A stretch of DNA of 64,000 nt from a virus, in IMG/VR virus record IMGVR_UViG_3300034105_001970. The stretch is one strand, 5' to 3'. Shown in pieces: positions 3,261 to 59,501 of the stretch (the stretch's first letter is position 1; each line of letters starts with the position of its first letter). A program made the translations under genes and the position numbers. The notes below the pieces were generated by a model, which ran no database searches, was not told the origin of the DNA, and saw only the letters and a program-made list of their open reading frames with translations.

Positions 3261-3263
3261 GTT

Positions 3264-5076: not shown

Positions 5077-5077
5077 T

Positions 5078-5704: not shown

Positions 5705-6186
5705 TGAATTGGATAATTTTCACAACCGAATGTAGTGGTAAAACAACATTTTGTTCACTAAACAATAATAAATTAAAAGATTATGATTTAGTGGATTGGG
5801 ATGTGATAAAAGCATTACCAAATGGTGAATATGAAAATGAAATATTATTAATAGATGTTATGTTAGAATTGGTTAATAAAGATAATCAGATTTATTTAAC
5901 AAATATATTTCCACCAAACTTTATATTAGAGTGTAAACATTATTATAAAAATATTAAATTTGGAATAATTAATTTGAAAGAAGAAGAATTAAAAATACAA
6001 ATTAAAAGTAGACATAACCCAAATTATAATTCAAATTACATTATTGAAAAAAATAATGAATTAAAAAAAATAGTTGATAAAAAAAATACATTTAAAAGTT
6101 TTAAAAGTTTTAAAGAATTTAAAGAATATTTTGAACCATCATTAATTAATATCAAACCGATGGTACAAAGAATAATAAGATTATGA
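5704..6186 (+). CDS. hypothetical protein with imperfect P-loop
   Basis: N-terminal IIFTTECSGKTTF resembles Walker A but lacks the first Gly; ATGA overlap with neighbours. Confidence 0.3.
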   Translation: MNWIIFTTECSGKTTFCSLNNNKLKDYDLVDWDVIKALPNGEYENEILLIDVMLELVNKDNQIYLTNIFPPNFILECKHYYKNIKFGIINLKEEELKIQIKSRHNPNYNSNYIIEKNNELKKIVDKKNTFKSFKSFKEFKEYFEPSLINIKPMVQRIIRL

Positions 6187-6824: not shown

Positions 6825-7939
6825 GTTACGAATTAAAAGACATTTCAGTAGTAATACCAAGTTATAATAACTTAGAGTATTTAAAATTAGTATATAAATC
6901 AGTTAGAGATATTTCTGACGATATTGAAGTTATACTATATGGGGATGGGTGTAATGATGGAACAAATGAATGGTTATTATCATTAAAACATACAAATACA
7001 ATTACCCACATATATAGTGAAAAACTTGGACATCCTGTTTTATACGATTATGGATTTCAAATAGCAAGTAGACCTGTAATAGGGATTTTGCACGCAGATA
7101 TGATAGTTCACAAAAATTTCTTTGAGAATATTTTGAAGTATGTGGGAACAAATAAAATCGTATGTGGTATGTGTGTAGAGCCACCAATTCATCCAGCAGG
7201 TAAGGAAAAATATCAATTAGATGCAGGTACATATCCAAATGAGTTTAATCAATCTAAGTTTGATGAGTTCTATGAAACGATAGAAAAAAATACAACTAAC
7301 AATGGTATATTTGCACCTTGGTTTGTATTGAAAGATGAGTACATTAATATATTAGGTGGACACGATACAAATTTTCAAACAATCGAAGATGTTGATATTT
7401 TTCATAGAATGGTAATTGGTGGATTTGATATTATACAAAGTAGAGATGCATTAGTTTATCATTTTACACAAAGAGGGCATAAATTTGAAGGTGGTGATTT
7501 ACAAAAAGTACAAGATGATTATCAAAGTAGAATAGATACCGATACAAAAAAATATATTAGAAAATGGGGGTGTATATGGTATTTTGATATAAATCACAAA
7601 CCAATTCCAATGCCAAAATATAACATTGGGTTAATCATTTATAATGCACCACAAGATTTAGTTATATTTTTAGAACCATACTTTACAACTATATACACTA
7701 ATAATTTGGGTCAAGTTGAGGGTGTTAGTAAGTTAAAAGATATTAATGATGAACTTACCAATGATAGTTTTGTGACAATAAATGCAGAACATCTAACAAA
7801 CGAAAACATAGAATTTTTAATGAAAGTACCATATGTATTAAAACAAAATACACAAATTGGGCAATTCAAAATAGATATATTTAATCTATATATAAAAAAC
7901 TACAATGAATATCAGAATGAATTAATTAAAGTAAATTAA
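6821..7939 (+). CDS. glycosyltransferase family 2
   Basis: ISVVIPSYNNLEYLKLVYKSV...EVILYGDGCNDGT is the canonical GT2 signature. Confidence 0.65.
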   Translation: MSYELKDISVVIPSYNNLEYLKLVYKSVRDISDDIEVILYGDGCNDGTNEWLLSLKHTNTITHIYSEKLGHPVLYDYGFQIASRPVIGILHADMIVHKNFFENILKYVGTNKIVCGMCVEPPIHPAGKEKYQLDAGTYPNEFNQSKFDEFYETIEKNTTNNGIFAPWFVLKDEYINILGGHDTNFQTIEDVDIFHRMVIGGFDIIQSRDALVYHFTQRGHKFEGGDLQKVQDDYQSRIDTDTKKYIRKWGCIWYFDINHKPIPMPKYNIGLIIYNAPQDLVIFLEPYFTTIYTNNLGQVEGVSKLKDINDELTNDSFVTINAEHLTNENIEFLMKVPYVLKQNTQIGQFKIDIFNLYIKNYNEYQNELIKVN

Positions 7940-7969
7940 TCTTATATTTATATATTAGAGGAAATAACT

Positions 7970-8632
7970 ATGACAACAAACAATAGTGTAACAACTAAAC
8001 CGGAAGTACCAACCGAAGATGATTTTGAAGGAATGCCATCAGCCGCAATTACAGGTGTAAGTGCAGAAAACACAAACGAAGGACCATTAGGCACAATGAG
8101 AGATACAAAACCTACTCCAACAAATGATATTTTGTGGAAAGCAACAGGTAGAGTATGTGAAGGTAGAGGAATGACAGAAAGAGTTAAGATGTATGAAAAG
8201 AAAGGTGGTGGATGGAGAATGGGTAAGCATGTTGATGAAACTGTTTATACAACACTAAGTGAATTCTATAAAAACGAAATCAAACCTAGAAAAGAAGCAA
8301 AAGAGTTAATGGTTAAAAGAAGATTAACTCCAGAAAGTATATTAAGAGAAGAAGAACCGGGTGGTGATGTAGTAGCAAGTAATGGTACACAAGACCACGA
8401 AGTTTCAATGGCAAAGGCATCATTGGTGAGTATTGGTAAAGCAGTAAATGATTTAATGGGTAGATTGGGTGATACCGAAAAAGATATTCCAGGATGGATA
8501 CAAGACCATATCACAAATGCCGAAAACTATATTGTTCAGGCATCAAAAGGATATTATGACCAGGAAGATAAAAAATTAGGAAACAACATTCCAAAACCTG
8601 AAAATCAAACACAATATTCAAATGGAAAATAA
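7970..8632 (+). CDS. hypothetical acidic protein
   Basis: 220-aa ORF, hydrophilic, no motif recognised. Confidence 0.4.
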   Translation: MTTNNSVTTKPEVPTEDDFEGMPSAAITGVSAENTNEGPLGTMRDTKPTPTNDILWKATGRVCEGRGMTERVKMYEKKGGGWRMGKHVDETVYTTLSEFYKNEIKPRKEAKELMVKRRLTPESILREEEPGGDVVASNGTQDHEVSMAKASLVSIGKAVNDLMGRLGDTEKDIPGWIQDHITNAENYIVQASKGYYDQEDKKLGNNIPKPENQTQYSNGK

Positions 8633-8999
8633 AGAATTACAACAATACATACAAGACGTTATCCACTTACAAACTCAAGTTAAGTTCTTTCATTGGCAAA
8701 CTAAAATCTATGCAAAACATAATGCATTAGGTGATTTATATGATACGATTTCAGGTAACATAGATGAATTTGCAGAAATTACAATGGGAAAATATGGTAG
8801 AATCGCAGTGGATGGTTTGAGTTATACTTTCATCAATGTTTCCGATGAAAATGTAATTAGTGTAATAGATGGTGGTATTGATATTTGTACAAAAATAACA
8901 AGTGCATTAGATGCAAAAGTAGATACTGATTTACTTAATTTGAGAGATGAATTATTAGGTTCATTGAATAAAACTAAGTATTTATTAACTTTAAAATAA
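8622..8999 (+). CDS. ferritin/Dps-like four-helix protein (tentative)
   Basis: FHWQTKIYAKHNALGDLYD...IDEFAEI resembles Dps helix A/B pattern (HW..G..F..LH...D.IAERI). Confidence 0.3.
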   Translation: MENKELQQYIQDVIHLQTQVKFFHWQTKIYAKHNALGDLYDTISGNIDEFAEITMGKYGRIAVDGLSYTFINVSDENVISVIDGGIDICTKITSALDAKVDTDLLNLRDELLGSLNKTKYLLTLK

Positions 9000-14929: not shown

Positions 14930-15568
14930 ATGAAAAAATTAGTATTACTTGTTACGATTTGTGTATTTTTTGCAATAGGTGGTAGAGCACAAGATGTAGT
15001 TATTTTGAAACATACAAACTATACATCACATTTTAGTAAGTCAAAAAAATATCCAGTAATGGTAGAGTGGTGGGAAACTAAAGCAAAAGTTGGTTGTCCA
15101 AATCCATTACCTAGAAGAGATGCATTTCAGCCAGACCCACAAGCAATACTTGAAACCGATATTAAAGCAGACTATGTAGGTAGTGGATATGATAGAGGAC
15201 ATATGAGTCCTGCAGCATCCAATCAATGTCAAACGGCAGGTGTTCAAATTGAATCGTTCTATATGAGTAATATGTCGGCACAAACACATAGACTAAATGC
15301 AGGAGATTGGAAATCATTAGAAGTAATGACTAGAGAGTGGGCAGTGAAAGATGATTCGGTTCATATATGGGCAGGTAATGTGGGAGAGATAAAAAAGATA
15401 GGTAAAGTATCAGTTCCAAAACAATGTTGGAAAGTGGTTTACTATAAAAAATCAAATGAATGGATGGCTTTCTTATTTGAGAATGACCAATCTAAACCCG
15501 ATGGAATATATAATAACAAAGTTGAATTAGTTGATATAGAAAAATTGACTGGGTTGAAGTTTAAATAA
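14930..15568 (+). CDS. secreted DNA/RNA non-specific endonuclease (His-Me finger, Serratia NucA family)
   Basis: Signal peptide MKKLVLLVTICVFFAIGGRAQ; catalytic YDRGHMSPAASNQ (DRGH) motif. Confidence 0.75.
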   Translation: MKKLVLLVTICVFFAIGGRAQDVVILKHTNYTSHFSKSKKYPVMVEWWETKAKVGCPNPLPRRDAFQPDPQAILETDIKADYVGSGYDRGHMSPAASNQCQTAGVQIESFYMSNMSAQTHRLNAGDWKSLEVMTREWAVKDDSVHIWAGNVGEIKKIGKVSVPKQCWKVVYYKKSNEWMAFLFENDQSKPDGIYNNKVELVDIEKLTGLKFK

Positions 15569-19856: not shown

Positions 19857-22001
19857 ATGAGTTGGTATGACAGTTTTAAGACGGGTACTTTAGATTATTT
19901 AACTAAAGGTTCGTACACTAGTAAAAAGAAAGAGAAAAAATCAGCGAGTTCATTTTGGGCTGATGAATGGAGTTCCTATGACACACCTACTACATATTGG
20001 GGTGGTGATACTTGGAAACCAAAAGAGTACAATAAGGTAGAAAGCAGTACTGCTGACCTTATTAAGTTGAATGCACATAGGAGAGCAATTGCTAACTTTG
20101 TGAACATTCTTACAAACAAAAACATTCCTGTAAAGTTTTCGCGTAAAGGTGATTCTTATACTGATGGTAAATCGGTAGTATTATCAGCTGAGGTTAAACC
20201 TGAAAAGTTTGATATCGCGGTAGGTTTGGCATTGCACGAAGCATCACACATTGTTCTTACGGACTTTGAATTAATGCCTGCTTATTCTGCACCAACCGAA
20301 ATGTTTAATAACTTTGCAAAAGCAGCGGGTTTAGATGTAAATGACCCTTCTTTTGATGGTACACAACATTATCGAAACAAAGAACAATTATTTGATGTAG
20401 TTAAATCATTGGTAAACTTTGTAGAGGATAGAAGGATTGACCAATATATCTACAATACTTGTCCAGGTTATAGAGACTATTATAGAGCATTGTATGATGA
20501 GTATTTCTATGATAAGACTATTGACAAAGGATTGATAAGTGATGAATATACGGATGAAACATTACAATCGTATATGTTCCGTATTATCAATATCACAAAT
20601 CAAAATACTGACCTTAACAAATTGAAAGGTTTGAAAGAAATCTACGAAACATTAGACCTTAAGAATATTAGTAGATTAAAAAATACAACCGATTCATTAG
20701 AGGTAGCAGAAAAGATTACCAACACTATCTTACAACATATCTTAGTTGATTTAAGTAAAGATGGTAAAGGTAAGGGTAATGGTGACCCTGCAGATGTAAA
20801 CGAAGCAGGTAATGAAACTGGAGCAGAGGCAGGTGATAAACAAAACGATGAAATGGGTGGTAGTGGTGGTGATGCACCTGTGATGGGTGAGAAAGGTGAC
20901 TCTACGAGTGGTGCTTCACAAACTGGTAATGGTAAAGATTTAATGAGTGATACTGCTAAGAAACAATTGGATAAACAAATCCAAAAGCAAAAGGACTTCG
21001 TTAATAACAATATCAAAAAGAAAGGATTAACTAAGAAAGAGGATGAAACCTTAGACCAAATGGCTGAGAGTGGAACTGAAATGCAATCCGTAGGTGATAC
21101 TAAATTAGAGAATGGTGGATATATTCAACCGGTTCAATGTATCGTATCTAAGAAAATGACCGAAGGATTGATGCAAGATAGTTCGTTCCCTTTCGCTAGT
21201 TTTTGGAATGATAAATGGAATAACTGGAATGCTGATACTTTACAAAGAGGTATCGTAATGGGTACTATTTTAGGTAAGCGTATTGCAGTTCGTAGTGAGG
21301 AAAGAGAAACAATCAATCCACGCCAAAAGAATGGTAGAATTGATAAGAGAATGGTAGCGGCATTAGGATATGATTATGTAAATGTATTCAGTACCAAAGA
21401 AGTAGATAGGTTTAAGAAAGTAATGTTGCACGTTACTATTGATGGTAGTGGTTCAATGAGTGGTAGTGTGTGGGATGATACATTAGCCGTAACAATTGCT
21501 ATTTGTAAAGCAGCATCAATGGTAAGTAACTTAAATGTACAAGTTTCTATCAGAGGTACGTGGGGTGATAAACCTTACATATGTATTGCGTATGATAGTA
21601 GATTTGATAAGTTTGAGAAAGTTAAGAGATTGTTTCCTGCATTACACGCCAATGGTACAACACCTGAAGGTTTATGTTATCAAGCGATACTTAAACATTT
21701 TGTAGAGAGCAACAAAGATATGGATTCTTATTTCTTAAACATATGTGATGGTGAGCCAACATTCTCAAATCAACAATGTTCTTATAGTGGTAGAAACGCT
21801 TTGTTACACACTAAGAAAATGGTAGGACAAATCAAAGATATGGGTATACAAGTTATGAGTTACTTTGTTGGTGGCAGTTCATATAGTAGTTCATCTGACA
21901 ACTTTAAAACAATGTACGGAAGTGACAGCCGTTTTATTGATGTTAAACAAATCGTTCCTATCATTAAAACAATGAATGAGCTTTTTATGAAAAAAGCGTA
22001 A
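19857..22001 (+). CDS. VWA-domain protein, CobT-like partner of MoxR-type AAA+ ATPase
   Basis: C-terminal MIDAS HVTIDGSGSMSG; central Gly/Asp/Lys-rich acidic low-complexity region; adjacent to the AAA+ gene. Confidence 0.6.
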   Translation: MSWYDSFKTGTLDYLTKGSYTSKKKEKKSASSFWADEWSSYDTPTTYWGGDTWKPKEYNKVESSTADLIKLNAHRRAIANFVNILTNKNIPVKFSRKGDSYTDGKSVVLSAEVKPEKFDIAVGLALHEASHIVLTDFELMPAYSAPTEMFNNFAKAAGLDVNDPSFDGTQHYRNKEQLFDVVKSLVNFVEDRRIDQYIYNTCPGYRDYYRALYDEYFYDKTIDKGLISDEYTDETLQSYMFRIINITNQNTDLNKLKGLKEIYETLDLKNISRLKNTTDSLEVAEKITNTILQHILVDLSKDGKGKGNGDPADVNEAGNETGAEAGDKQNDEMGGSGGDAPVMGEKGDSTSGASQTGNGKDLMSDTAKKQLDKQIQKQKDFVNNNIKKKGLTKKEDETLDQMAESGTEMQSVGDTKLENGGYIQPVQCIVSKKMTEGLMQDSSFPFASFWNDKWNNWNADTLQRGIVMGTILGKRIAVRSEERETINPRQKNGRIDKRMVAALGYDYVNVFSTKEVDRFKKVMLHVTIDGSGSMSGSVWDDTLAVTIAICKAASMVSNLNVQVSIRGTWGDKPYICIAYDSRFDKFEKVKRLFPALHANGTTPEGLCYQAILKHFVESNKDMDSYFLNICDGEPTFSNQQCSYSGRNALLHTKKMVGQIKDMGIQVMSYFVGGSSYSSSSDNFKTMYGSDSRFIDVKQIVPIIKTMNELFMKKA

Positions 22002-22176: not shown

Positions 22177-23409
22177 ATGAGTAAAAAAGCAACACAAGAG
22201 TATGGTTACACAAATGAAGTGTACAAAGTAGAAAATCTTAAATCCCGTTTTAACTTAGTTAATACTGCGGGTGATGTATTAAGTAGTTCAGATTCTACAA
22301 TAGTAGGTAGTTCTTTACGAAAAAAAGCATCAGCACAAAATAAAGCAATTCGTGCGCATGTAAACAAAAACGGAGCTAAAAGCTATCGTATGGTAGAAAT
22401 GCAAGAATATACGGATATGTTGGTTAAGCCGATGAATACGGATATCGCTGAAACTATCGTAGAAAATCCAACGGAGCATAAAGATGTTATCGATTTCATT
22501 CATAAAGAGGGTATGGCGTTAAAACCTGCTAACTTAATTATGAACGAGTTGAAGTGGAAATATTTATTACGTTCAGCGGTTCGAGCGCGAAATATTATGA
22601 TGACAGGACCTGCGGGTAGTGGTAAGACAATGGCAGCTAAAGCATTAGTTGCGGCATTGAAAAGACCGTTTCATTACTTTAACTTAGGTGCGACGCAAGA
22701 CCCGAGGGCGGCATTAATTGGTAACACACACTTTAACAAAGCAAGTGGTACTTATTTTAGTGAGAGTGCATTCGTTAAAGCTATTAAGACACCTTACGCA
22801 GTTGTGTTATTAGATGAATTAAGTAGAGCTCATCCAGAAGCCGCTAATATCCTAATGACAGTGTTAGACCAAACACAAAGATACTTACGATTAGATGAGC
22901 AAGAAAATTCACCAATTGTTAAGGTGGCAGAAGGTGTTACCTTTATTGCAACTGCAAACATCGGTTCTGAATATACTGCAACGCGTGTAATGGATAGAGC
23001 ATTGTTAGATAGATTCGTGACAATTGAGGTAGATGTATTGAATGCTGAGCAGGAATATGAATTGTTAAAGATGTTATATCCTGATACGAATGATTACAAT
23101 TTGAAATCAGTAGCAGAGATTGCGGCACACACTAGAGACCAAATCAAAGGTGAGGCGGGTAAATTGACAACTGCTGTATCAACTCGTATTTCAGTAGAGA
23201 TGGCAGGTTTGTTGTATGATGGTTTCAGTTTGTTAGAAGCAGCTGAGGTAGCAATCTTCCCGTTCTATTCACAAGATGGTGGTATGGATAGTGAGCGTAC
23301 TTACATTAAGCAACTTATACAAAAATTCGTAGTAGATGAGAATGAAGGTGAAAAGTTATTCAACGAAGTGAAAGAGGAAGATGCGAATGACGATACTATT
23401 GTTTGGTAA
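22177..23409 (+). CDS. AAA+ ATPase, MoxR/CbbQ/CobS-like
   Basis: Walker A MMTGPAGSGKT, Walker B VVLLDELSRAHPEAANILMTVLDQ; pairs with upstream VWA gene. Confidence 0.7.
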   Translation: MSKKATQEYGYTNEVYKVENLKSRFNLVNTAGDVLSSSDSTIVGSSLRKKASAQNKAIRAHVNKNGAKSYRMVEMQEYTDMLVKPMNTDIAETIVENPTEHKDVIDFIHKEGMALKPANLIMNELKWKYLLRSAVRARNIMMTGPAGSGKTMAAKALVAALKRPFHYFNLGATQDPRAALIGNTHFNKASGTYFSESAFVKAIKTPYAVVLLDELSRAHPEAANILMTVLDQTQRYLRLDEQENSPIVKVAEGVTFIATANIGSEYTATRVMDRALLDRFVTIEVDVLNAEQEYELLKMLYPDTNDYNLKSVAEIAAHTRDQIKGEAGKLTTAVSTRISVEMAGLLYDGFSLLEAAEVAIFPFYSQDGGMDSERTYIKQLIQKFVVDENEGEKLFNEVKEEDANDDTIVW

Positions 23410-39008: not shown

Positions 39009-40118
39009 ATGAAATTAGAAACAATTTACAAAAAAACAAAGACCGGTGCAACGCAAGAATGGACAATTGAAGTAGTAGGTAATAAATACCGAACCCATAG
39101 TGGACAAGTTGGCGGTGCTATTACTACGAATGAGTGGACAATTTGTTATGGTAAGAATATTGGTAGAGCAAATGAAACTACGGATAAAGAACAAACGATG
39201 GCAGAGGCGGTAGCTAAACGAACTAAGAAATTAGAGAGTGGTTACTTTGAGAATATTAAACACATAAACAAAACACAATACTTTGAACCAATGTTAGCTG
39301 CAAAGTGGGAGGATTGTAAAGATAAAGTTACATATCCAATTTATTCGCAAGCTAAGTTAGATGGTATTCGTTGTATAGTGACAAAAGATGGTATGTTTAG
39401 CAGAAATGGTAAACCTATTCTTTCAGCGCAACATATCATGTATAGCTTATGGCATGTATTTGTAATGAATCCTGATTTGATATTAGATGGTGAGTTATAT
39501 GCCGATAAGTTCGCTAATGATTTCAATAAGATTGTATCTTTGGTTAAAAAAACAAAACCAACTAAAGAGGATTTAATTGAAAGTGAAAAAAGTATAGAGT
39601 ATCACATATACGATTTACCTAGTTCAGATAATAACTTTGTAAAAAGAATGTATGATTTAGGAATACTATTTGAAACATTTTCACAAGTAGGTAAGTATTG
39701 TAGAATAGTACAAACATATAAAGTTGATAATGCAGATATGGTTGAGGAATTATATGGTGGATATGTAGAACAAGGTTATGAAGGTCAAATCTTAAGAATA
39801 GATGGTAAGTATGAAAACAAACGAAGTAAGAATTTATTAAAACACAAATCGTTTGTTGATGATGAATATACTATCTTAGATATTGTAGAGGGTGAGGGTA
39901 ATAGAACCGGCACTGCTGGTTATATGGTATTTGAAACGATTGATGGAAAACCTTTCAAATCAAATGTAAAAGGAACATGGGATGAAACGGCTGAAATGTT
40001 AAAGAGTAAAAAGAAACTAATCGGTAAGCAAGCAACGATTAAGTATTTTAATTTAACACCTGATGGTATTCCCCGTTTTCCATATGTAATTAATATTGAT
40101 AGAAACGAATACGAATAA
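39009..40118 (+). CDS. ATP-dependent DNA ligase
   Basis: Motif I KLDGIR, motif III DGELY, motif IV EGQILR, motif V LLKHK, in the canonical order and spacing. Confidence 0.85.
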   Translation: MKLETIYKKTKTGATQEWTIEVVGNKYRTHSGQVGGAITTNEWTICYGKNIGRANETTDKEQTMAEAVAKRTKKLESGYFENIKHINKTQYFEPMLAAKWEDCKDKVTYPIYSQAKLDGIRCIVTKDGMFSRNGKPILSAQHIMYSLWHVFVMNPDLILDGELYADKFANDFNKIVSLVKKTKPTKEDLIESEKSIEYHIYDLPSSDNNFVKRMYDLGILFETFSQVGKYCRIVQTYKVDNADMVEELYGGYVEQGYEGQILRIDGKYENKRSKNLLKHKSFVDDEYTILDIVEGEGNRTGTAGYMVFETIDGKPFKSNVKGTWDETAEMLKSKKKLIGKQATIKYFNLTPDGIPRFPYVINIDRNEYE

Positions 40119-40121
40119 GTT

Positions 40122-40646
40122 ATGAGAAAGAAAATAATATTCATAGATGTAGATGGGCCTTTAGCGTGGGGAAATTGGGGTGATGGAAAGGTTATAATTG
40201 ATGAAGGAAATGTATCACCATTTACAATACCATATGCTTGGGATATACCTGAATGTGAAGCATTGAAAACTATATTAGATGAAACAAATGCTGAGTTAGT
40301 ATTGAGCTCAGATTGGAGAAATCATTTTTCATTTGACCAGATGCGTGCAATATTTCAACACTATGGAATACATCGTTCACATTTAATTGATACAACAACA
40401 TATCAATACCTGTGGGATAAGATGAGTAGATGTTCAAATGATTATATGAGAGCGGCACAAATAGCAAAGTGGGTTAAAGATAATAAGATTAGTAATTGGA
40501 TAGCAATTGATGATTTGAATGTAGCATTACACTTTAAGTTTATGAATATCCCACAATGGAGACACGTAAAAGTAAATGGTGAAATGCAATTCAAAGGTAA
40601 GTTAAGAAATAAGATTGATGAATGTATAACAAAATTAAATAGATAG
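40122..40646 (+). CDS. HAD-superfamily phosphatase (possibly nucleic-acid 3'-phosphatase partner of the ligase)
   Basis: IIFIDVDGPL motif I, LSSDW motif II, K...IAIDDLN motif III/IV. Confidence 0.45.
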   Translation: MRKKIIFIDVDGPLAWGNWGDGKVIIDEGNVSPFTIPYAWDIPECEALKTILDETNAELVLSSDWRNHFSFDQMRAIFQHYGIHRSHLIDTTTYQYLWDKMSRCSNDYMRAAQIAKWVKDNKISNWIAIDDLNVALHFKFMNIPQWRHVKVNGEMQFKGKLRNKIDECITKLNR

Positions 40647-42092: not shown

Positions 42093-42638
42093 ATGAGAAT
42101 ATTAATTATTGCTAATATGAGGAGTGGTTCTACAACTTTATTAAAATGGTTGGGAATAGAGTTGGGGTACAAAACAATAAACGAATTACATAATCCACTA
42201 TTTCCGGTTGAGTTTGAGTTAAATAGTAATAACTTTATTGTTAAAGAAATACATCATCATATTAAAGATATACCAAATTATATATCAAAGTTTGATAAAG
42301 TAATAACACTAACACGTACTGATACATTTGATAGTGCAGTTAGTTTATTATATTGTGATGAAAAACCAAATTATGATTATCATTCAAAATATAAAATAAA
42401 TGATAAATGGATTTCAGACAGAATATATGAAATACATAGAATAGAAAGAGAATTTATTAAACAAAATAAAGATATCGTTAGTATAGATGCATTTCATATA
42501 ACATATGAAGGCATTTTTAAAACAAAAACCGAACTTAAAAAATTATGTGAATATCTAAATATAGATGTTAATAATTTAAAAGCAAGTGAATTGTTAAATA
42601 ATAATAACAGGTATCGTAATAATAATAAAATGATATGA
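42093..42638 (+). CDS. sulfotransferase-like protein (Stf0/Sulfotransfer_3-like)
   Basis: MRILIIANMRSGSTTL (PAPS 5'-phosphosulfate-binding-like RSGST) and TRTDTFDSAVSLLY 3'-PB-like; track start TTG 42078 replaced by ATG 42093. Confidence 0.4.
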   Translation: MRILIIANMRSGSTTLLKWLGIELGYKTINELHNPLFPVEFELNSNNFIVKEIHHHIKDIPNYISKFDKVITLTRTDTFDSAVSLLYCDEKPNYDYHSKYKINDKWISDRIYEIHRIEREFIKQNKDIVSIDAFHITYEGIFKTKTELKKLCEYLNIDVNNLKASELLNNNNRYRNNNKMI

Positions 42639-43846
42639 AAAATATAGTATTAGGAATTATATTAGTTATAGCGGTTAGTTGTAATAAAACTATACCGAGT
42701 GTGATACCACCAATTGTAGTAACACCGATTGTATTAACACCGACTGAATTACCAAAAATTATATATTATGGTAAGACATCATATGAATTAAAAAATACAA
42801 AAAACTTTATCAATATTGATTCACTTAGAACAAACCTTGGTATTAGGAATATTGGAAAATACAATGGTAATAGTAATAATGGTTGGGTATATGTAGATAT
42901 GAATAACGATGGATTAGAAGATATTTTTTATCCATACACATCGGATGGCGAATTTAATTCAAAACCAGATGTGTTTATAAATAAAGGTAAAACATATATT
43001 AGTGATAATAGTATGTTACCGAGTGACTACACCGGTAATCAAACAACAAGAAAAACAATTGTTGGTGATTTTAATAATGATAGTTTACCGGATTTGTTTT
43101 TATGTAATCATGGATATGAAAGTAATAACTATTGGCCAGGCGAAAACAACACATTGTTATTAAGTGACAAAAAAACAGGCAAATATAAAATAGGAACATT
43201 ACCTGATATTGGTAAATCCTTTTGGCATGGGGGAGCAAGTGGTGACTTAAATAAAGATGGTAATATTGATATCGTTGTAACTGCCGGAAATAGCATTAAA
43301 GTTTTATATGGTAGTGGCAATGGTAGTTTTAATGCAACCGATTGGAAATATAAAGGAGCATCCGGTTATTTAACAATTGAAATATTAGATGTAAATGAAG
43401 ATAATCAATTGGATATTATAATGACTGGGTTTGAAGGATTCCCAAATTCAGATAGGTATTCTAAATCTACTATATTTTGGAATAATAATAATGAATTTAG
43501 TAACAATACAATTATATGTGAACCAAATATAAATGGATGGGCATTGGTATTGGATATTGTAGCAGCCGACATCGATAATGATGGTACAACTGAAATAATA
43601 TTAAATAGAACAATCGATAGTGGTACTAATTGGTATAATGGATTTCAATTAAGTGTGTATAAAACAACTGATAATTATAAAACGTTTAAAGAAAACAATA
43701 TTATAACATATCAAACTAATTCAAAAGCATGGATGTCCAAATTAAATTTATATCAGAAAGATAATGTTTATTATTTAGATGGTATTACTATAAATGGAAA
43801 AATATATCATTGGAAACAAGACCCTATAACTAAAACATTTAATTAA
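42635..43846 (+). CDS. lipoprotein with FG-GAP / VCBS-type beta-propeller repeats
   Basis: Lipobox VIAVSC; five D-x-N-x-D-G-x-x-D/E loops (DMNNDGLEDIF, GDFNNDSLPDLF, GDLNKDGNIDIV, LDVNEDNQLDII, ADIDNDGTTEII). Confidence 0.5.
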   Translation: MKNIVLGIILVIAVSCNKTIPSVIPPIVVTPIVLTPTELPKIIYYGKTSYELKNTKNFINIDSLRTNLGIRNIGKYNGNSNNGWVYVDMNNDGLEDIFYPYTSDGEFNSKPDVFINKGKTYISDNSMLPSDYTGNQTTRKTIVGDFNNDSLPDLFLCNHGYESNNYWPGENNTLLLSDKKTGKYKIGTLPDIGKSFWHGGASGDLNKDGNIDIVVTAGNSIKVLYGSGNGSFNATDWKYKGASGYLTIEILDVNEDNQLDIIMTGFEGFPNSDRYSKSTIFWNNNNEFSNNTIICEPNINGWALVLDIVAADIDNDGTTEIILNRTIDSGTNWYNGFQLSVYKTTDNYKTFKENNIITYQTNSKAWMSKLNLYQKDNVYYLDGITINGKIYHWKQDPITKTFN

Positions 43847-44220: not shown

Positions 44221-45378
44221 ATGACATTTTATTACGATTCTATTTATGGTTTAGATTTTAAATATTTTGAATCAATTGGATATAATCTTATAGAATTACA
44301 ACATAATGATTTTAGTTACATTGGTAATCTTAAAGATAATGATGTATTATTTACTACATTAGATACAATTGATAATATAAACAAATCGGTAAATCCAAAT
44401 ATAAAATTAAATATATTTTTGTTTATTAAACATGAATATTGTAATGAACATAGGCGTAAAGCAATTATAGAAAGTAGAAATACAAATCATACTATATATT
44501 TCTTAACAACGCATTTAGATGTGTATAGTATTGAAAATGATTTATCATTTAAAAATAGATGTTATCCATTTACAAACTTATTTTCAAAAGTAGCCTATAT
44601 ACCAAACAATAATAGAACAAAGAAGTTTAATTTCTTTAATAGGTCTATAAATTTACGAAGACTTAAAATATTTGAATTGCTAAAAAAAGCAGATATTCAA
44701 TTAAGCCAATGTTATTATACATTTGGTAATATAATAAAAAAAGATACGTTTGGTAATCTTTCTACAATACAAGATTTTATTAATTATAGAAATAGACCGG
44801 GTGGGGGACGTAGTGGTAATGATGATTTAATAATTGATACCGAATACTTAAATCAATTTGTAAATGAGTTTTTTATATATGAGAACAAAGATGCGGTAGC
44901 ATTAGGACAGATACAAAGCTCAGATACAAATGATATGTATAATACTATTAATACAAACTCATTAGATTCATATATTTCATTTACTATTGAAAGTAGTGGT
45001 GATAGTGGTGATGATTTAAGGTTGACAGAAAAAACAATTAGATCTTGGTTATGTAAAAATATATTCTTATCTTTACAATGTAATGGGTTTAACTCAGCAT
45101 TAAGAGGATATGGAATCGAAACATTTGAAGATGTATTTGGATTAGAAATTGGATGGGATGATAATAAAACGGAAACTGAAAGAATAGAAATATTTGTAGA
45201 TGCTTTAAAACGAATCAATGAATTATCAATTGATGAAGTTAAAGCAATATATGAATCGGATAATGTTCAACAAAGATTAGAAAAGAATTATAAATTTATA
45301 ATGGAAGGCTTTAATCCTACCAATACAATATTAGAAATAGAAAAATTAATTGGTTATGAAAATAATGTTCCTAAGTGA
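44221..45378 (+). CDS. hypothetical protein, possible glycosyltransferase with FucT-like motif
   Basis: ISFTIESSGDSGDDLRLTEKTIRSWL resembles GT10 FENS...TEK motif; similar size to 27230/28479 proteins. Confidence 0.35.
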   Translation: MTFYYDSIYGLDFKYFESIGYNLIELQHNDFSYIGNLKDNDVLFTTLDTIDNINKSVNPNIKLNIFLFIKHEYCNEHRRKAIIESRNTNHTIYFLTTHLDVYSIENDLSFKNRCYPFTNLFSKVAYIPNNNRTKKFNFFNRSINLRRLKIFELLKKADIQLSQCYYTFGNIIKKDTFGNLSTIQDFINYRNRPGGGRSGNDDLIIDTEYLNQFVNEFFIYENKDAVALGQIQSSDTNDMYNTINTNSLDSYISFTIESSGDSGDDLRLTEKTIRSWLCKNIFLSLQCNGFNSALRGYGIETFEDVFGLEIGWDDNKTETERIEIFVDALKRINELSIDEVKAIYESDNVQQRLEKNYKFIMEGFNPTNTILEIEKLIGYENNVPK

Positions 45379-46060
45379 CACTCATGGTAGACACCTTGAG
45401 ATTACTGAATTATATGGTGAATTGCCGTATGTAGATATTATTGTACATAGTGGGGATTGTACTCGTTATGGTGAATTTGAAGAAACTGATTTATTTATGA
45501 ATTGGTTTAGTAAACAAAATGCAAAACATAAAGTATTAGTAGCGGGCAATCATGATTTTGTATTACAGCAAACCGATAGGCGTAATTGGTTATTGGCAAA
45601 TAATTATGGAGTTACCTATTTAGAAGATAGTTTTATAAACATCGATGGGTTAGGTATCTATGGTAGTCCATGGTCTCCTGTATTTGGTATGTGGGCATTT
45701 ATGAAACAAAGAAATGCAGAATTAGATTCGGTATGGCAAAAAGTACCAACTGACGGAAGTGTAGATTTGTTAGTGACACATACACCTAGATATGGTAGAT
45801 TTGATGTGAGTGTGAGAGGCAACTATAATGTAGGATGTGAGATGTTAGCGTATAGAATCAATGACATACACCCTAAGGTCCACGTATTTGGACACATACA
45901 TGAATGTGGTGGAATGATTAAAGAGGAAACCGAAGTGCCGTTAGAGGGTATGATAAGTTTGAATGCATCGTTATTAAACATTCGTTATGTATTAGCTAAT
46001 CCTATTTGGATATGGGACACTGAAACAAATGATTGGAATTCAATAGAAATAAAAGAATAA
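45350..46060 (+). CDS. calcineurin-like metallophosphoesterase
   Basis: LSDTHG, GDCTRYG, AGNHDF, GHIHE motifs in order. Confidence 0.8.
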   Translation: MVMKIMFLSDTHGRHLEITELYGELPYVDIIVHSGDCTRYGEFEETDLFMNWFSKQNAKHKVLVAGNHDFVLQQTDRRNWLLANNYGVTYLEDSFINIDGLGIYGSPWSPVFGMWAFMKQRNAELDSVWQKVPTDGSVDLLVTHTPRYGRFDVSVRGNYNVGCEMLAYRINDIHPKVHVFGHIHECGGMIKEETEVPLEGMISLNASLLNIRYVLANPIWIWDTETNDWNSIEIKE

Positions 46061-46877: not shown

Positions 46878-47647
46878 ATAAGTTATGGATTTTCGGTGAT
46901 AGTTTTTCACATGGGCACGGCTTTAATAATTCTGACCCATTCTATGAAGTTACTTTATCCGATGATATTGATAAAAGATATTGGTGTGAAATAGTAGCAC
47001 ATGAATTAAATTTGGAACTACATAATCACGCTAGAGTAGGTGCATCCAATGACTATATATTGGACAACATTTTAAATAACGCAGATAAGATTGGAGAAAA
47101 CGATTATGTTGTAATCCAAGCTACATATTATAGTAGATTTGATGTTCCACACAAAAGCTCATTTAGTTTTTTACATACAATTGTTAGATATGATGATAGT
47201 AGACATATTAACGTAAACTTAATAGGTGATGATGATATGACTGACCATAAACACGAAACATTAGTAGATTTTGCAGTTTATTTTGCAGGATTACCGGCAT
47301 ACAAACACAGACAACTTAATAGATTTGAAAAATTAATAAATTTACTAAAAACAAAAAATGTTGTATTTTGGTGTTTAGAATCTCCAGATTCTCCAAATAT
47401 ACATGAAATTGAAATTCTAAAAAAACCATACTTTCTTAAATTTGAGAACAAATATATAGGTGGAGAGGATTGTTTCAAAGAACACAAAGCAACTATTTCC
47501 GATGAAAGTAATGGTAAGATGCAAGATGGACATATTGGTGTAAAAGGACAACAAATCATGTCAGTAGAAATACTAAAAAAGTTTAACCAACGAATGGCTA
47601 ATCATTTTTTTGAACATATTAATACTTATAGGAAATCGTTATTATGA
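46874..47647 (+). CDS. SGNH/GDSL-hydrolase-like paralogue
   Basis: LWIFGDSFSHGHG (GDS-x-x-xG), QDGHIGVKGQQIM (DGxH). Confidence 0.55.
   Translation: MNKLWIFGDSFSHGHGFNNSDPFYEVTLSDDIDKRYWCEIVAHELNLELHNHARVGASNDYILDNILNNADKIGENDYVVIQATYYSRFDVPHKSSFSFLHTIVRYDDSRHINVNLIGDDDMTDHKHETLVDFAVYFAGLPAYKHRQLNRFEKLINLLKTKNVVFWCLESPDSPNIHEIEILKKPYFLKFENKYIGGEDCFKEHKATISDESNGKMQDGHIGVKGQQIMSVEILKKFNQRMANHFFEHINTYRKSLL
47588..47647 (+). repeat. 60-bp direct repeat, copy 2
   Basis: See 46818-46877. Confidence 0.7.
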
Positions 47648-48375
47648 AAGTTTTAGTTATCGGTGATAGTTGTACTGATGTATTTGTATATGGTTATTGT
47701 AAAAGATTATGTCCCGAAGGACCTGTGCCAATATTTGAACCGAGTAGAACAATTACCAATATGGGTATGAGTGGTAATGTAGTAGCTAATCTTAAATCGT
47801 TGGGAGCTGAGAAAGTTGAGTTGGTTACTAACAAAGAACAAATTACAAAGACTAGATATGTAGAGGAAAAAGCAAATCATATGATTATCAGAATTGATAG
47901 TAATGATAAGGTTAGTAATTCATTTGATGTAAAAAGAGTTCCATTCAATGATTATGATGCAGTTATTGTAAGTGATTATGACAAAGGATTTCTATCATTA
48001 TCAGATTTGAAATTGATTAGTGATTCACATCCATTAACTTTTATAGATACAAAGAAACCATTATCAGCAGAAATGCGTAATTATACATTCATTAAGATAA
48101 ATGAAGTTGAGTGGGAAAATTGTAAAGGACAGGAATACGAAATGTGGCGAGAAAGATTAATTATAACAATGAGTGAACGAGGTGCAATGTATGATGGTAT
48201 TACATATCCGGTTAACAACGATATTGAGGTTAGAGATTTGAGTGGTGCAGGTGATACCTTTATGGCTTCATTAGTAGTTAGTTATTTAAAAACAAAAAGT
48301 ATAGAAGTTAGTATTGAATACGCAAATGATTGTGCAACAAAAGTTGTACAAAAACGTGGTGTAGTTACATTGTAA
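47644..48375 (+). CDS. PfkB-family sugar kinase, RfaE domain I / HldA-like (heptose 7-phosphate kinase family)
   Basis: VLVIGDSCTDVFVYGYCKRLCPEGPVPIF aligns with RfaE-I N-terminus (ILVVGD...SPEAPVPV); DLSGAGDTFMASLV anion-hole/GAGD motif. Confidence 0.7.
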   Translation: MKVLVIGDSCTDVFVYGYCKRLCPEGPVPIFEPSRTITNMGMSGNVVANLKSLGAEKVELVTNKEQITKTRYVEEKANHMIIRIDSNDKVSNSFDVKRVPFNDYDAVIVSDYDKGFLSLSDLKLISDSHPLTFIDTKKPLSAEMRNYTFIKINEVEWENCKGQEYEMWRERLIITMSERGAMYDGITYPVNNDIEVRDLSGAGDTFMASLVVSYLKTKSIEVSIEYANDCATKVVQKRGVVTL

Positions 48376-51895: not shown

Positions 51896-52450
51896 ATGTT
51901 TGATAAATTAATAGCAGTAATACAACAATTTGGACATTCAATAATGCCCGTATTCGTAGTGGATATGTGGGAAAAGGCATTGGTATTAAGATTCGGTAAG
52001 TTTAATGATATAAAAGATCCGGGTTTACATTGGAAAATACCATTTGTAGATTCAGTATGGCATCAAACCATTGTAACACAATCAATACATTTGCATCCAC
52101 AATCAATCACATCATTAGATTATAGAAATATAGTAGTAAGAGCAATTGTTAGGTATGATATTGCAGATGCATATTTGTTTTTAACTAAGTTAGCACACCC
52201 GACTGATGTATTGGTAGACACAACGGGTGCAATGATTAGAGAAATTATTGAGGAACGAAATTGGGAAGACTTGATTGATATAGAAGTTGAATTAACCAAA
52301 ACAATTGGTGCTAAAGTTAAAGAGTGGGGTATTAATATAGAAAAGGTCACTTTAACCGATTTAGCTGAAATCAATTCAATCAGAGTTATAACCGATGGTG
52401 ATAACAATAGACAATCAATAGTTCCATTAACCGATACAACCAATAGCTAA
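51896..52450 (+). CDS. SPFH/band-7 (stomatin/prohibitin/HflK-like) domain protein
   Basis: N-terminal hydrophobic anchor; GLHWKIPFVDSV...VVRAIVRYDIADAYLF...IREIIEE pattern typical of SPFH. Confidence 0.55.
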   Translation: MFDKLIAVIQQFGHSIMPVFVVDMWEKALVLRFGKFNDIKDPGLHWKIPFVDSVWHQTIVTQSIHLHPQSITSLDYRNIVVRAIVRYDIADAYLFLTKLAHPTDVLVDTTGAMIREIIEERNWEDLIDIEVELTKTIGAKVKEWGINIEKVTLTDLAEINSIRVITDGDNNRQSIVPLTDTTNS

Positions 52451-52977: not shown

Positions 52978-53170
52978 TATGGAAAAACATTACGCAAAAG
53001 AAATAATAGCATGGGCAGAGGAAGCTAAAGAAACATTATTAATTCGTAAAGAAATAATATTAGATGATGATTTAACCGATGAACAATTAGGTGCTATTGT
53101 TAGAATAATGTATCGTGCAAAAGTAAGAGCAGAAAATGATTCAATTGAAAGATGTAAAAAATTTATATGA
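52958..53170 (+). CDS. hypothetical small protein
   Basis: 70-aa ORF. Confidence 0.3.
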   Translation: MINGLINMEKHYAKEIIAWAEEAKETLLIRKEIILDDDLTDEQLGAIVRIMYRAKVRAENDSIERCKKFI

Positions 53171-53994
53171 CAAACAAACATAATATAGAAATCGTATTTG
53201 CAACCGGATGTTCACATAGTGCAGGTGGCGGATTAGAAACTATTAAGTATGCAGACGATAAGGTAACATTAGTACGTGATATCTACAAAGAAAAATACAA
53301 TGTATGGTGGGATAATCAATTAGAAGTTACATATGCTAGTAGATTAGCAGATATGCTAGGATGTAAGGTAGAAAACAAAGCAGCAAGTGGTGGTGGAACT
53401 GGTAGAGCAGTTAGAGAGGCATTTGATTTTGTAAAAAGAAATTGGGATAAAAAAGATAAGTTACTATTGTTATTAGAATTACCCGCATACTTTCATAGAT
53501 TAGATATGTATTCAACCAATCTAAATAGTTGGGTAGTAGTAAATCATTCAGTTAATGAGAATGGTGTAAGAGACCATATATACGCAACACGTGGGTATTA
53601 TATGGATGGGCACCATGGTGATTTTAAAAATACAAATAAAGATGGTGCATTAGAAAAATACTTAGATAACTTTATAGATTATGATATTGAAGTTGCTAAA
53701 ATGAATAGAGAGGCAGAGATGTTATTGACATTTTTAAAATACCATAAAATTAAATTTATATATTTTGAAGGTGGTCAAAAACTAAAAGGTGTTTTGGATA
53801 AATCATTATTATCAAACGAATTAAATATAGAAGGGCATACTGATTTTCATCATTGGATAATGAAAAACGGATATACTATAAAGGATGAATTAGGTGCTGA
53901 TATATTAAACGATTTACATCCTGGTTATTTCGGCAACATAAAGTTTGCTGAGTTTTTATATGGATATGTAAATGAAAATTGGGATATATTATAA
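53167..53994 (+). CDS. SGNH/GDSL-hydrolase-like paralogue (divergent)
   Basis: IVFATGCSHSAGGG block I variant; C-terminal LHPGYFGNIKFAEFL. Confidence 0.45.
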   Translation: MTNKHNIEIVFATGCSHSAGGGLETIKYADDKVTLVRDIYKEKYNVWWDNQLEVTYASRLADMLGCKVENKAASGGGTGRAVREAFDFVKRNWDKKDKLLLLLELPAYFHRLDMYSTNLNSWVVVNHSVNENGVRDHIYATRGYYMDGHHGDFKNTNKDGALEKYLDNFIDYDIEVAKMNREAEMLLTFLKYHKIKFIYFEGGQKLKGVLDKSLLSNELNIEGHTDFHHWIMKNGYTIKDELGADILNDLHPGYFGNIKFAEFLYGYVNENWDIL

Positions 53995-54776
53995 TGAAAG
54001 GATATTTTTTACCAGATTATAATATTGCACTACAATTTACTAATAAAACAGGTAGTTTACAAATGATAAATACCTTTATGTTATTTTTTAATTACAATAA
54101 TATAAAATATGAGGAGGCTACTATATTATATAATTCACCTAATCCATTTGATGAAAAAACGCAATTTTATATTTTTACAAGAAATCCAATAGATAGATTT
54201 ATTACAACGTATAATTGGTTTATGAATTCAATTGATGGACCGGAAAATGTTTTAAATTTAAAAAAGAAATATAACATACCTGATATAGAATCATATATCA
54301 ATAACTATACTAAGATAATGTACGAAATAGATGATACACATTATCAACCACAAATATTTGAAATTTTAGCGTTTGAACGAAATAAGTTTAATTTTGATTC
54401 AAAATCAATAAAAGATTCTCTTTTTAAAGGATATAATACTAATTATACATTTCTAAATATGGAAATGATTTCAACATTTTTAGAAAATTTTACAAATACA
54501 TATCAATATTCGCATGGTAATCTTTTAGATTTATCGTTACCTAAAACGGATTACGAATGCAAACTAATATTAGATTTAATACCAGAATTTGTATCTATGG
54601 ATATAGAATCAAAAAAACATTTTAATTTTTTATATTTGGCAATTAAATCAATTTTAGACAAAGGTCATCATCATACTAATAGCAGAATTGAATTAGATAC
54701 TCCAAAACTCCGTGCAATTATAGGAAAAATACCTATTATTAAAATAGAAACACAATTATATGGATATTCTTTATAG
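53979..54776 (+). CDS. carbohydrate-sulfotransferase-like protein (Sulfotransfer_2-like)
   Basis: FTNKTGSL (5'-PSB-like K-T-G-S) and FYIFTRNPIDRFITTY matching the CHST 3'-PB motif F-x-F-V-R-D-P-F-E-R-L-V-S-A-Y. Confidence 0.45.
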   Translation: MGYIIMKGYFLPDYNIALQFTNKTGSLQMINTFMLFFNYNNIKYEEATILYNSPNPFDEKTQFYIFTRNPIDRFITTYNWFMNSIDGPENVLNLKKKYNIPDIESYINNYTKIMYEIDDTHYQPQIFEILAFERNKFNFDSKSIKDSLFKGYNTNYTFLNMEMISTFLENFTNTYQYSHGNLLDLSLPKTDYECKLILDLIPEFVSMDIESKKHFNFLYLAIKSILDKGHHHTNSRIELDTPKLRAIIGKIPIIKIETQLYGYSL

Positions 54777-54840: not shown

Positions 54841-54868
54841 AAGGGGTACATAAAAAGTACCCTTTTTC
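54841..54868 (+). terminator. intrinsic terminator
   Basis: AAGGGGTAC-ATAAAAA-GTACCCTTT stem-loop then T-run. Confidence 0.6.
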
Positions 54869-54900
54869 TTTGGTAAAATGGGTAATTTTTCGTATCTTTA
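54869..54900 (+). promoter_or_regulatory. Bacteroidota-type promoter
   Basis: TTTGGTAA-N20-TATCTTTA; ATG 54906 lies only about 6 nt downstream, so the transcript would be leaderless or nearly so. Confidence 0.45.
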
Positions 54901-54905
54901 AGTAT

Positions 54906-55136
54906 ATGAATACAATAGAAATACTAGGATATGTGGCTACAATAGTTACATTAATATCAATGATGGCTAAGAATATGAAACTATTGAGAATATTAAACTC
55001 AATTGGTTGCGTATTATGGATGTCATACGGAATTATACGAAATGATAATCCGGTTATAGTGGTGAATAGTACAATATTGATAATTCATTTAGTATCTTTG
55101 TATAAAACAAAACGAAATGAATCAATGGGTATGTAG
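54906..55136 (+). CDS. small 2-TM membrane protein (holin-like topology)
   Basis: Track ORF 54870 N-terminus is the translated promoter; MNTIEILGYVATIVTLISMM... two TM helices. Confidence 0.35.
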   Translation: MNTIEILGYVATIVTLISMMAKNMKLLRILNSIGCVLWMSYGIIRNDNPVIVVNSTILIIHLVSLYKTKRNESMGM

Positions 55137-58461: not shown

Positions 58462-58635
58462 ATGGCACTAAGAAAAATTCTAAGAGCAATGAAAGCATCA
58501 TTGATTGCAGAGCAAGCTAGAATACCTAAAACAATATTAGGTAATTTCATACATAGATTTAAAATACATTCTATGGAAGGTAGAATATCTAAAATAGAAA
58601 CCGAATTACTCAAACGAAAAACAAAGAAAGTATGA
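58462..58635 (+). CDS. hypothetical small protein
   Basis: Track ORF 58411 N-terminus (IFRIFKY) is the translated promoter; first ATG after the promoter is 58462. Confidence 0.3.
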   Translation: MALRKILRAMKASLIAEQARIPKTILGNFIHRFKIHSMEGRISKIETELLKRKTKKV

Positions 58636-59501
58636 ATTTAGGATATGCATGTATTAATATGAGTTTGGGTAAAAAGGTCACTACAAACCGAACAATGATT
58701 AAGAGAACTTTTTTAGAAAAGGGACTGGATTATGTATCGGATTGTGTTATACAAAATGTAGCGGACTTAGAACGGATTATAGAATGGAATGAGCAGAATG
58801 GTATTAAGATGTATCGTATGAGTTCCGATATGATGCCATGGGCTACTGAATATCAATTTGAACAATTAAAAGATTGGAATGAAATTGCAATCATACTAAA
58901 AAGATGTGGTGATAAAGCAACAAAGTATGGACAAAGATTATCATTTCATCCAGGTCCTTTTAATGTATTAGTTTCACCAAAAGAAGCGGTAGTACAAAAT
59001 ACAATAAATGATTTAGAAGTGCATGGTAGGTTGATGGATGCGATAGGATTATCTAAAACACCTTACAATAAAATCAATATACATTGTAACGGAGTGTATG
59101 GTGATAAGCAAAGTGCGATGGATAGGTTCATAGATAATTTTAAACTACTATCTGATTCAGTAAAGAGCAGATTAACAATTGAGAATGACGATAAGGCGAG
59201 TATGTATTCAGTTAAAGACTTAATGTATATTCACAATGCAATAAAGATACCTATTGTATTTGATTATCATCATCACACATTCAATACCGGAAATTTAAGT
59301 GAGCAAGATGCATTAGAGTTAGCTATGAGTACATGGCCGAAAGGTATAACACCGGCAGTTCACTATTCTGAAAGTAAGATGGGTAGTAAGCCACAGGCAC
59401 ATAGTGATTTCATTGAAAGGATTCCTGAAACATACGGCAACATAGTGGACATAATGGTAGAAGCAAAACAAAAAGATTTAGCAATAATAAAATTTATATA
59501 G
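58632..59501 (+). CDS. uvdE: UV DNA damage endonuclease UvdE
   Basis: Full-length collinear match to the UvdE family: LGYACIN, YRMSSDMMPWATE, SFHPGPFNVLVSPKE, INIHCNGVYGDK, LTIENDDK, IVFDYHHH, VEAKQKD. Confidence 0.9.
   Translation: MNLGYACINMSLGKKVTTNRTMIKRTFLEKGLDYVSDCVIQNVADLERIIEWNEQNGIKMYRMSSDMMPWATEYQFEQLKDWNEIAIILKRCGDKATKYGQRLSFHPGPFNVLVSPKEAVVQNTINDLEVHGRLMDAIGLSKTPYNKINIHCNGVYGDKQSAMDRFIDNFKLLSDSVKSRLTIENDDKASMYSVKDLMYIHNAIKIPIVFDYHHHTFNTGNLSEQDALELAMSTWPKGITPAVHYSESKMGSKPQAHSDFIERIPETYGNIVDIMVEAKQKDLAIIKFI

Follow-up and report, generated by a model that had tools for sequence, protein, structure and literature searches.

The 64,000-nucleotide (nt) stretch of viral DNA from the IMG/VR record IMGVR_UViG_3300034105_001970 (the window, by which we mean the whole stretch at its full length) carries at positions 53994-54776 a gene for a protein of 260 amino acids (aa), which is very probably a sulfotransferase of the type that uses 3′-phosphoadenosine 5′-phosphosulfate (PAPS) as donor. 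Its most likely placement is within the PAPS-sulfotransferase superfamily, closest to Sulfotransfer_2 (PF03567) and outside the formal limits of that family, and it most likely represents a very divergent new sulfotransferase lineage of phages that is missed by routine annotation. Three independent lines support this assignment, namely transitive sequence evidence, the fold and the geometry of the motifs. The sulfotransferase call combined with a sugar-related role is the single most likely of the readings discussed below, with a probability that we place moderately above one half. The original prediction, made from the sequence alone, had named a candidate of the carbohydrate sulfotransferase type at this locus. 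The sulfotransferase part of it stands, with conserved motifs of the Sulfotransfer_2/CHST type for binding the 5′-phosphosulfate (5′-PSB) and the 3′-phosphate (3′-PB) of PAPS, and its carbohydrate part, that is, a role in glycan modification, is not established.

Gene, conserved motifs and predicted fold

The gene and the stretch that has to be separated from it are the following:

53994..54776, + strand: sulfotransferase-like coding sequence, 260 aa, ATG start
53979..53993, + strand: in-frame TTG extension outside the gene, located within the upstream SGNH-like gene at its 3′ end

The open reading frame (ORF) 53979..54776 (+) opens with TTG and comprises 265 aa, and this TTG had been taken as the start, 15 nt too far upstream. 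All homologues begin with MKG at the position matching the ATG at 53994, the gene calls for the identical protein (P0001) on 18 public contigs start at the same ATG and give 260 aa, and this ATG shares one base with the stop codon of the upstream gene (TAATG). The first 15 nt of the earlier interval therefore belong to the tail of the upstream gene. Residues are numbered throughout on the 260-aa protein from the ATG at 53994.

Both peptides on which the original prediction was built exist in this ORF, NKTGSL at 54042-54059 and FYIFTRNPIDRFITTY at 54165-54212, and they fall into the following elements:

54042..54059, + strand: 5′-PSB-type motif N17-K18-T19-G20-S21-L22, in the loop that joins strand 11-15 to helix 18-34
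54165..54212, + strand: 3′-PB-type motif F58-Y-I-F-T-R63-N-P-I-D-R68-F-I-T71-T-Y73, on strand 57-62 and helix 65-78

In solved sulfotransferases the 5′-PSB and 3′-PB elements have just such a strand-loop-helix and strand-helix layout, respectively. Conservation was assessed in an alignment of 29 family members with identities down to ~20%, in which conservation is highest within the two PAPS-type motifs, as had been expected of genuine motifs. The first motif is a strand-loop-helix element with a conserved lysine, K18, which is replaced by Arg in two of the 29 members, and with G20 present in all of them; the second hydroxyl residue of the pattern K-x-G-[ST]-[ST] is a leucine (L22) in this protein instead of Thr. 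In the second motif, R63 follows strand 57-62 and T71 lies inside helix 65-78, giving the arginine at the strand end and the canonical 8-residue spacing to a Ser/Thr in the helix, with position 71 being Ser or Thr in most members. The peptide TRNPIDRFITTY matches the 3′-PB signature of the RDPxxRxxSAY type, which was confirmed against the HS2ST and 3rnl sequences only, the former having been verified against PDB 4ndz/3f5f. The block aligns with RNPVDRAFSAY of 3rnl (LRNPVDRAFSAY), and hhalign pairs FTRNPIDRFITTY with VIRDPIERLVSYY of HS2ST (R63 with R164, T71 with S172), an alignment that maps these two residues and is not by itself proof of domain-wide homology.

The core pattern R[DN]P..R..[ST] is found in this ORF alone among the 231 ORFs of the window, with 0.011 occurrences expected from composition-preserving shuffles of the whole ORF set, and the pair K.G[ST] ... 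R[DN]P..R..[ST] did not occur in any of 2000 shuffles. Since the pattern was set after the sequence had been seen, these figures are a rough guide only, and conservation, as judged from the alignment, is the stronger evidence for the motifs being more than a chance occurrence.

Beyond the motifs noted originally, the family shows three further conserved blocks, D-x-H116-x-x-P-Q120, E157, and H225-H226 together with a C-terminal G-Y. Residues G20, R63, P65, R68, H116, Q120, E157, H225 and Y258 are invariant among the 29 members, and K18, N64, H226, E252 and G257 are conserved in at least 90% of them.

The family is tiny. Among 5.8 billion proteins, a word-indexed search returned 20 relatives with identities of 45-100%, and of 1.84 billion cluster representatives only 31 were recovered by an exhaustive profile search. 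Two more rounds of profile searching brought in a few dozen additional members and nothing from outside the family; the second of them, made with the most Pfam-like sub-clade to seek a bridge to bona fide PF03567 proteins, gave only more family members. The contigs on which members were seen are all viral or phage-like, with lengths of 265-316 kb in some cases, many independent contigs carry the protein at 45-94% identity, and every source that names the relatives calls them "hypothetical protein". No match was obtained among 50,697 deposited phage genomes, either with the protein (tblastn) or with 8 kb around the gene (blastn, distant mode), and no relative was found by close-homologue alignment, which covers close relatives only, in 185,579 species-representative bacterial and archaeal genomes. 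No characterised member was found in the literature. In one IMG/VR contig (L019) the family member is split into two ORFs, 7941-8471 and 8627-8764, which may represent a frameshifted pseudogene or an assembly error; the gene is intact in the near-identical context of L020.

The AlphaFold2 model, built with 14 homologues, has a mean predicted local distance difference test score (pLDDT) of 82 and a predicted template modelling score (pTM) of 0.82. It depicts a single alpha/beta domain with a central parallel sheet, predicted to be structurally closest to other sulfotransferases, so that the modelled fold agrees with the one originally proposed. In the structural comparison all 22 top matches were sulfotransferases, with a clear gap to kinases, and StaL and Teg12 were the best among them. 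Sulfotransferases also topped the Foldseek list against the PDB, none of them being significant (best E=0.07). The N-terminus (MKGYFLPDYNIALQF) enters the first strand at once (strands 2-6 and 11-15), and no hydrophobic segment is visible there by inspection.

The third line of evidence comes from the relatives. Sulfotransfer_2 (PF03567) was matched by 17 of the 29 family members (best E=4.8e-5), Sulfotransfer_1 weakly by two (best E=0.0011) and Sulfotransfer_3 by one. Two members, P0037 (24.0 bits) and P0049 (23.9 bits), exceed the curated PF03567 cut-off of 22 bits, with matches that extend from the 3′-PB block through the His block (profile positions ~73-215 of 252), and precomputed PF03567 labels were found on three others (P0066, P0073, P0074). 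With the 29-member family profile searched against PDB sequences, the top 8 matches were all sulfotransferases, led by 3rnl (E=0.012), with the 3′-PB block alone being aligned. The link to PF03567 is transitive only, because it is the distant relatives that match and not the window protein.

Proposed catalysis and gene neighbourhoods

Two of the conserved elements could contribute to catalysis or acceptor binding, and they are listed here with the conserved histidine pair:

54333..54353, + strand: D-x-H116-x-x-P-Q120 block (DTHYQPQ), candidate catalytic or acceptor-binding element
54462..54464, + strand: Glu157, invariant, just past strand 151-155, alternative candidate general base
54666..54671, + strand: pair His225-His226, closing the long helix 204-225, with H225 invariant and H226 conserved in at least 90% of members

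The PF03567 alignments of P0049, P0033, P0024 and P0046 run through the H116 block, up to profile positions 165-215. In HS2ST (H140/H142), HS6ST, the cytosolic SULTs and StaL, the catalytic base lies between the 5′-PSB and 3′-PB elements; in the present family the invariant H116 or E157, both located downstream, may take this role.

By analogy with solved sulfotransferases, we infer PAPS use, the catalytic residue, the class of acceptor and the biological role as follows. The protein would be a soluble, cytoplasmic PAPS-dependent enzyme of a small, phage-restricted sulfotransferase branch. The loop after the second strand (K18-T-G20-S21) would grip the 5′-phosphosulfate of host-made PAPS, and the 3′-phosphate would be held by R63, which closes the next core strand, and by T71, one and a half helical turns further on. 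H116 of the DxHxxPQ block or E157 would then deprotonate a hydroxyl or amine of the acceptor, which would attack the sulfuryl group, with 3′-phosphoadenosine 5′-phosphate (PAP) as the leaving group. The acceptor would most likely be a sugar or a sugar-linked intermediate handled by the phage glycosyltransferases, the SGNH esterase/acyltransferase-like enzymes and the metallophosphoesterase, and the product a glycoconjugate carrying sulfate, located on the virion or in the envelope of the infected cell.

The genes and elements of the window that bear on such a role are listed here:

53167..53994, + strand: SGNH/GDSL-fold enzyme, 275 aa, upstream, translationally coupled through a 1-nt stop/start overlap
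54841..54875, + strand: terminator-like hairpin with a 9-bp stem and a 7-nt loop, followed by a T-run, 65 nt past the stop codon (consensus match only)
54870..55136, + strand: YgjV/SemiSWEET-like membrane protein, 88 aa (76 from an internal ATG), directly downstream
45350..46060, + strand: metallophosphoesterase, possible distant partner (Pfam Metallophos, E=1.5e-15)
47644-48375: PfkB-type kinase
1857-7939, + strand: block of five glycosyltransferases

The SGNH gene and the sulfotransferase-like gene form a translationally coupled pair, with the latter in last place, and the hairpin at 54841-54875 probably ends their transcription unit, as its sequence suggests; two hairpin and T-run sites of the terminator type occur in 2.4 kb, compared with 0.6 expected. 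The SGNH/GDSL assignment of 53167-53994 is based on Ser (block I), Gly (II), Asn (III) and His (V) and on the fold. This gene is one of nine SGNH paralogues in the window (starts at 9003, 11654, 12405, 46206, 46874, 48695, 49407, 50077 and 53167), in which the Ser, Gly and His of the SGNH blocks are invariant and several carry Cys or Thr for the Asp of "GDS". The downstream protein matches Pfam Imp-YgjV (E=4.6e-9, 36.7 bits against a cut-off of 23.5) and reaches 22.8 bits with MtN3_slv, just below the cut-off; from these profile matches it could be a small SemiSWEET-like, phage-borne transporter. No known function of YgjV was found in the literature.

In relatives, genes related to sugars recur beside the family gene in different arrangements. 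On a 265-kb contig (L011/L012) the gene of an NAD-dependent sugar epimerase/dehydratase comes after a family member and before a YgjV-like gene, whose product is a YgjV homologue (E=6e-16) encoded 1 kb downstream of the ~25%-identical family member (L011 11844-12059, L012 8021-8236); the same contig also encodes GroEL/ES, a T4-type RNA ligase, a DNA ligase and UvdE. In further contigs of up to 287 kb (L007/8, L013, L014-16, L019/20, L021/22, L023), metallophosphoesterase and Glyco_tranf_2_5 genes that overlap each other are found 1-4 kb downstream of the family gene, which is itself often directly preceded by an RNaseH-like gene, and the metallophosphoesterases (L007/8, L013, L014-16, L019-23) are homologues of the one at 45350-46060 of the window (E=1e-29 to 1e-36). 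On a 316-kb contig (L017/18), the two genes directly upstream encode a metallophosphoesterase-like protein (LpxH, PDB 5b49, E=0.006) and a protein resembling glycosyltransferase family 2 (GT2), the latter recognized in L017 by eye only from the motifs IPSKNE and DAD, with no tool support. A carbohydrate-related role is favoured because this linkage to sugar genes recurs in different arrangements.

The window has ~30% GC, its GC skew is positive in every 2-kb bin and essentially all credible genes are on the + strand, so that the 64 kb appear to represent one replication and transcription direction of a genome longer than 95 kb, the identical sulfotransferase-like protein being also carried on a 95-kb contig. 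No tRNA genes were found in the 64-kb window. The source is an uncultured freshwater phage of large size that was encountered mostly in metagenomes of JGI and ENA.

Several other genes of the window were noted on the side. The glycosyltransferase block consists of two GT1/GT4-like genes (1857-3260, 3264-4553) and three GT2 genes (5078-5704, 6183-6824, 6821-7939), and it is broken by a 160-aa ORF (5704-6186) with a P-loop-like N-terminus (ECSGKTT) and no Pfam match. The metallophosphoesterase gene overlaps one for a 385-aa protein without a detectable family (44221-45378). A 403-aa FG-GAP/VCBS-repeat protein (42635-43846, +) and an SPFH/Band-7 (stomatin/prohibitin-like) protein of 184 aa (51896-52450, +) belong to the same accessory region, and the Band-7 gene is also conserved beside the locus in the 49%-identical relative. 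A CobT-like (vWA) protein (19857-22001) and a CobS/MoxR-like AAA+ ATPase (22177-23409), both on the + strand, belong to the PHROGs class of phage auxiliary genes; such a pair occurs in large myoviruses, and the closest relatives of the ATPase (~51% identity) are in an uncultured 484-kb phage (LR756508.1) and in the 190-kb Microcystis phage Mel-JY01. The window is also rich in repair and processing functions, all on the + strand: an ATP-dependent DNA ligase and, after it, a protein with a HAD_SAK_2 phosphatase domain of the "Swiss Army Knife" RNA-repair type (39009-40646), UvdE (58632-59501, E=3e-64), a non-specific DNA/RNA endonuclease (14930-15568) and a PD-(D/E)XK nuclease (731-1603). A GP88-family protein is encoded as well.

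Alternative functions of the protein

A number of observations weigh against a sulfotransferase acting on sugars, and they concern both parts of this reading. Taken alone, the window protein gave no sulfotransferase match in Pfam even at E<=10, no significant match in the sequence search of the PDB and nothing relevant in PHROGs. The Sulfotransfer_2 profile that had been suggested as a check is thus negative on the protein itself, which stays below the PF03567 gathering threshold of 22 bits and outside formal membership, and PF03567 is reached via its distant relatives; the protein is also without a match to the SULT-type family (Sulfotransfer_1, PF00685). When the family is compared with the single HS2ST sequence, hhalign aligns 19 columns only, with a probability of 11%. 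Across the 29 sequences, no conserved His or Glu falls between K18 and R63. Neither ATP sulfurylase nor adenosine 5′-phosphosulfate (APS) kinase was seen in Pfam scans of the + strand ORFs of at least 200 aa in the window, and because of this lack of a PAPS-synthesis gene the supply of PAPS by the host is assumed. In regard to the sugar link, both the SGNH and the YgjV-like neighbours are missing next to the 49%-identical homologue in a syntenic phage (L009/L010), and therefore neither of them is an obligatory partner, and the linkage to metallophosphoesterase and GT2 genes could reflect common phage ancestry instead of shared function, since these phages have other genes in common as well.

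The most general alternative is that the motifs resemble those of sulfotransferases by chance only, the ORF being AT-rich and of some unrelated function, or else non-coding, which the base composition of the genome would make easier, as motifs rich in Asn, Lys, Ile, Phe and Tyr are easy to find at such a GC content. This is effectively refuted by the conservation of the protein on many independent contigs and of its motifs down to 20% identity, by the independent agreement of the fold and by the shuffles, and we give it next to no probability. It is also conceivable, and in our estimate unlikely, that the protein shares the fold common to sulfotransferases and P-loop kinases without transferring sulfate, being a nucleotide binder, a kinase-like enzyme with another donor or an inactive binder. 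Its loop reads K-x-G-S and not GxxxxGK[ST] as in Walker A, the conserved pair of R and S/T in the 3′-PB element is specific for the 3′-phosphate of PAPS, the structural matches are separated from kinases by a clear gap, and the strong retention of polar residues over ~20% identity argues for an active enzyme. A Walker-A kinase was rejected on the basis of conservation, structural matches and shuffles.

Once a PAPS-dependent sulfotransferase is accepted, the remaining alternatives concern its acceptor, and the chance that this is a carbohydrate is about even. An acceptor other than a carbohydrate is a minority possibility, though the strongest of the alternatives. It could be some small molecule, or else a peptide or a natural product, like the glycopeptide antibiotics that StaL/Teg12 sulfate, or it could be a protein tyrosine (TPST-like) or a host nucleotide or signalling molecule; in one variant of it, a host metabolite or immune signal could be inactivated by sulfation. 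Far less probable is a role of sulfation as an activation step before elimination or displacement, by analogy with the sulfotransferase domains of CurM and olefin synthases, retinol dehydratase and LGS1, as no thioesterase, polyketide synthase or typical pathway partner lies nearby and the CurM-type matches rank below ordinary sulfotransferases.

Returning to the preferred reading of a sulfotransferase with a sugar-related role, we tentatively propose, as a possibility short of an even chance, that large and huge freshwater phages carry a dedicated glycan-tailoring module with which a sulfated glycoconjugate is made during infection, located on the virion or at the surface of the infected cell. 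The module, to which we give the same limited confidence, would be composed of the sulfotransferase-like enzyme with non-canonical catalysis (DxHxxPQ or Glu157), GT2 enzymes, the metallophosphoesterase, the SGNH paralogues and the SemiSWEET/YgjV-like protein. The original prediction had drawn its sulfated-glycan hypothesis partly from the presence of two sulfotransferase families in one phage region, which was not confirmed: a Pfam scan of every + strand ORF of at least 200 aa in the window matched no sulfotransferase family, and the hidden Markov model (HMM) of the present family revealed no paralogue in the window. An equally divergent second sulfotransferase may escape the Pfam scan, as the protein studied here itself does. 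The hypothesis is plausible from the gene context and is not established, and no gene for PAPS supply was seen in the window.

Comparison with known sulfotransferases

The enzyme class itself is ordinary, and the case presented here is credible and testable and opens the question of sulfation by phages. Sulfation alters the charge and the recognition of surface molecules. Given an active enzyme, the phage particle itself or the envelope of the host could become sulfated, with possible effects on adsorption, superinfection exclusion, evasion of recognition by host or grazer and freshwater sulfur flow, and a compact sulfotransferase scaffold of 260 residues with unusual conserved residues would be gained. 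Our literature search found no phage sulfotransferase with a characterised function, none reported in jumbo or huge phages, and no report of sulfated glycans made by bacteriophages; such glycans would be a first if the proposed module is real. If the acceptor is an ordinary metabolite, this would be a routine accessory gene.

Among known systems, Sulfotransfer_2 comprises HS2ST, HS6ST, CHST8-14/HNK-1ST and many uncharacterised bacterial and viral proteins, and the window protein lies below Pfam detection for this family. It differs from these enzymes in being phage-borne, only 260 aa long and devoid of an N-terminal membrane anchor or stem, and the invariant blocks of its family (DxHxxPQ, E157, HH and C-terminal GY) are its own. 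Furthermore, no His is conserved between the PAPS motifs of the present family, whereas HS2ST has H140/H142 there. Animal CHST/HNK-1ST enzymes have a type II anchor and a stem with a lumenal domain; the protein was not placed in this group because it lacks the N-terminal anchor of those Golgi enzymes. With StaL and Teg12 (PDB 2ov8, 3mgc) the identity over the structural alignment is 9-10%, and this Sulfotransfer_1-like family is not favoured by the profiles, with 2 of 29 members giving weak matches, nor by the context, which is not one of antibiotic biosynthesis.

Mycobacterial Stf0/Stf1/Stf9 and rhizobial NodH show no detectable sequence similarity to the window protein and are larger (about 270-390 aa) and chromosomal, and their organisms usually have PAPS-synthesis genes of their own. 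On the phage side, Sulfotransfer_3 (PF13469) genes have been noted as auxiliary genes in cyanophage S-SRM01 and in OM43 phage contigs, with an unclear function in phages (PMC10580990). Like the gene described here, they are superfamily genes borne by aquatic phages without a known function, but they belong to another Pfam family and are detected by standard HMMs, whereas members of the present family, where a source names them, appear as "hypothetical protein". What is new relative to the known systems is thus a family that routine annotation misses, that was found on phage-like or viral contigs only, and that is nearest to Sulfotransfer_2 with invariant residues of its own.

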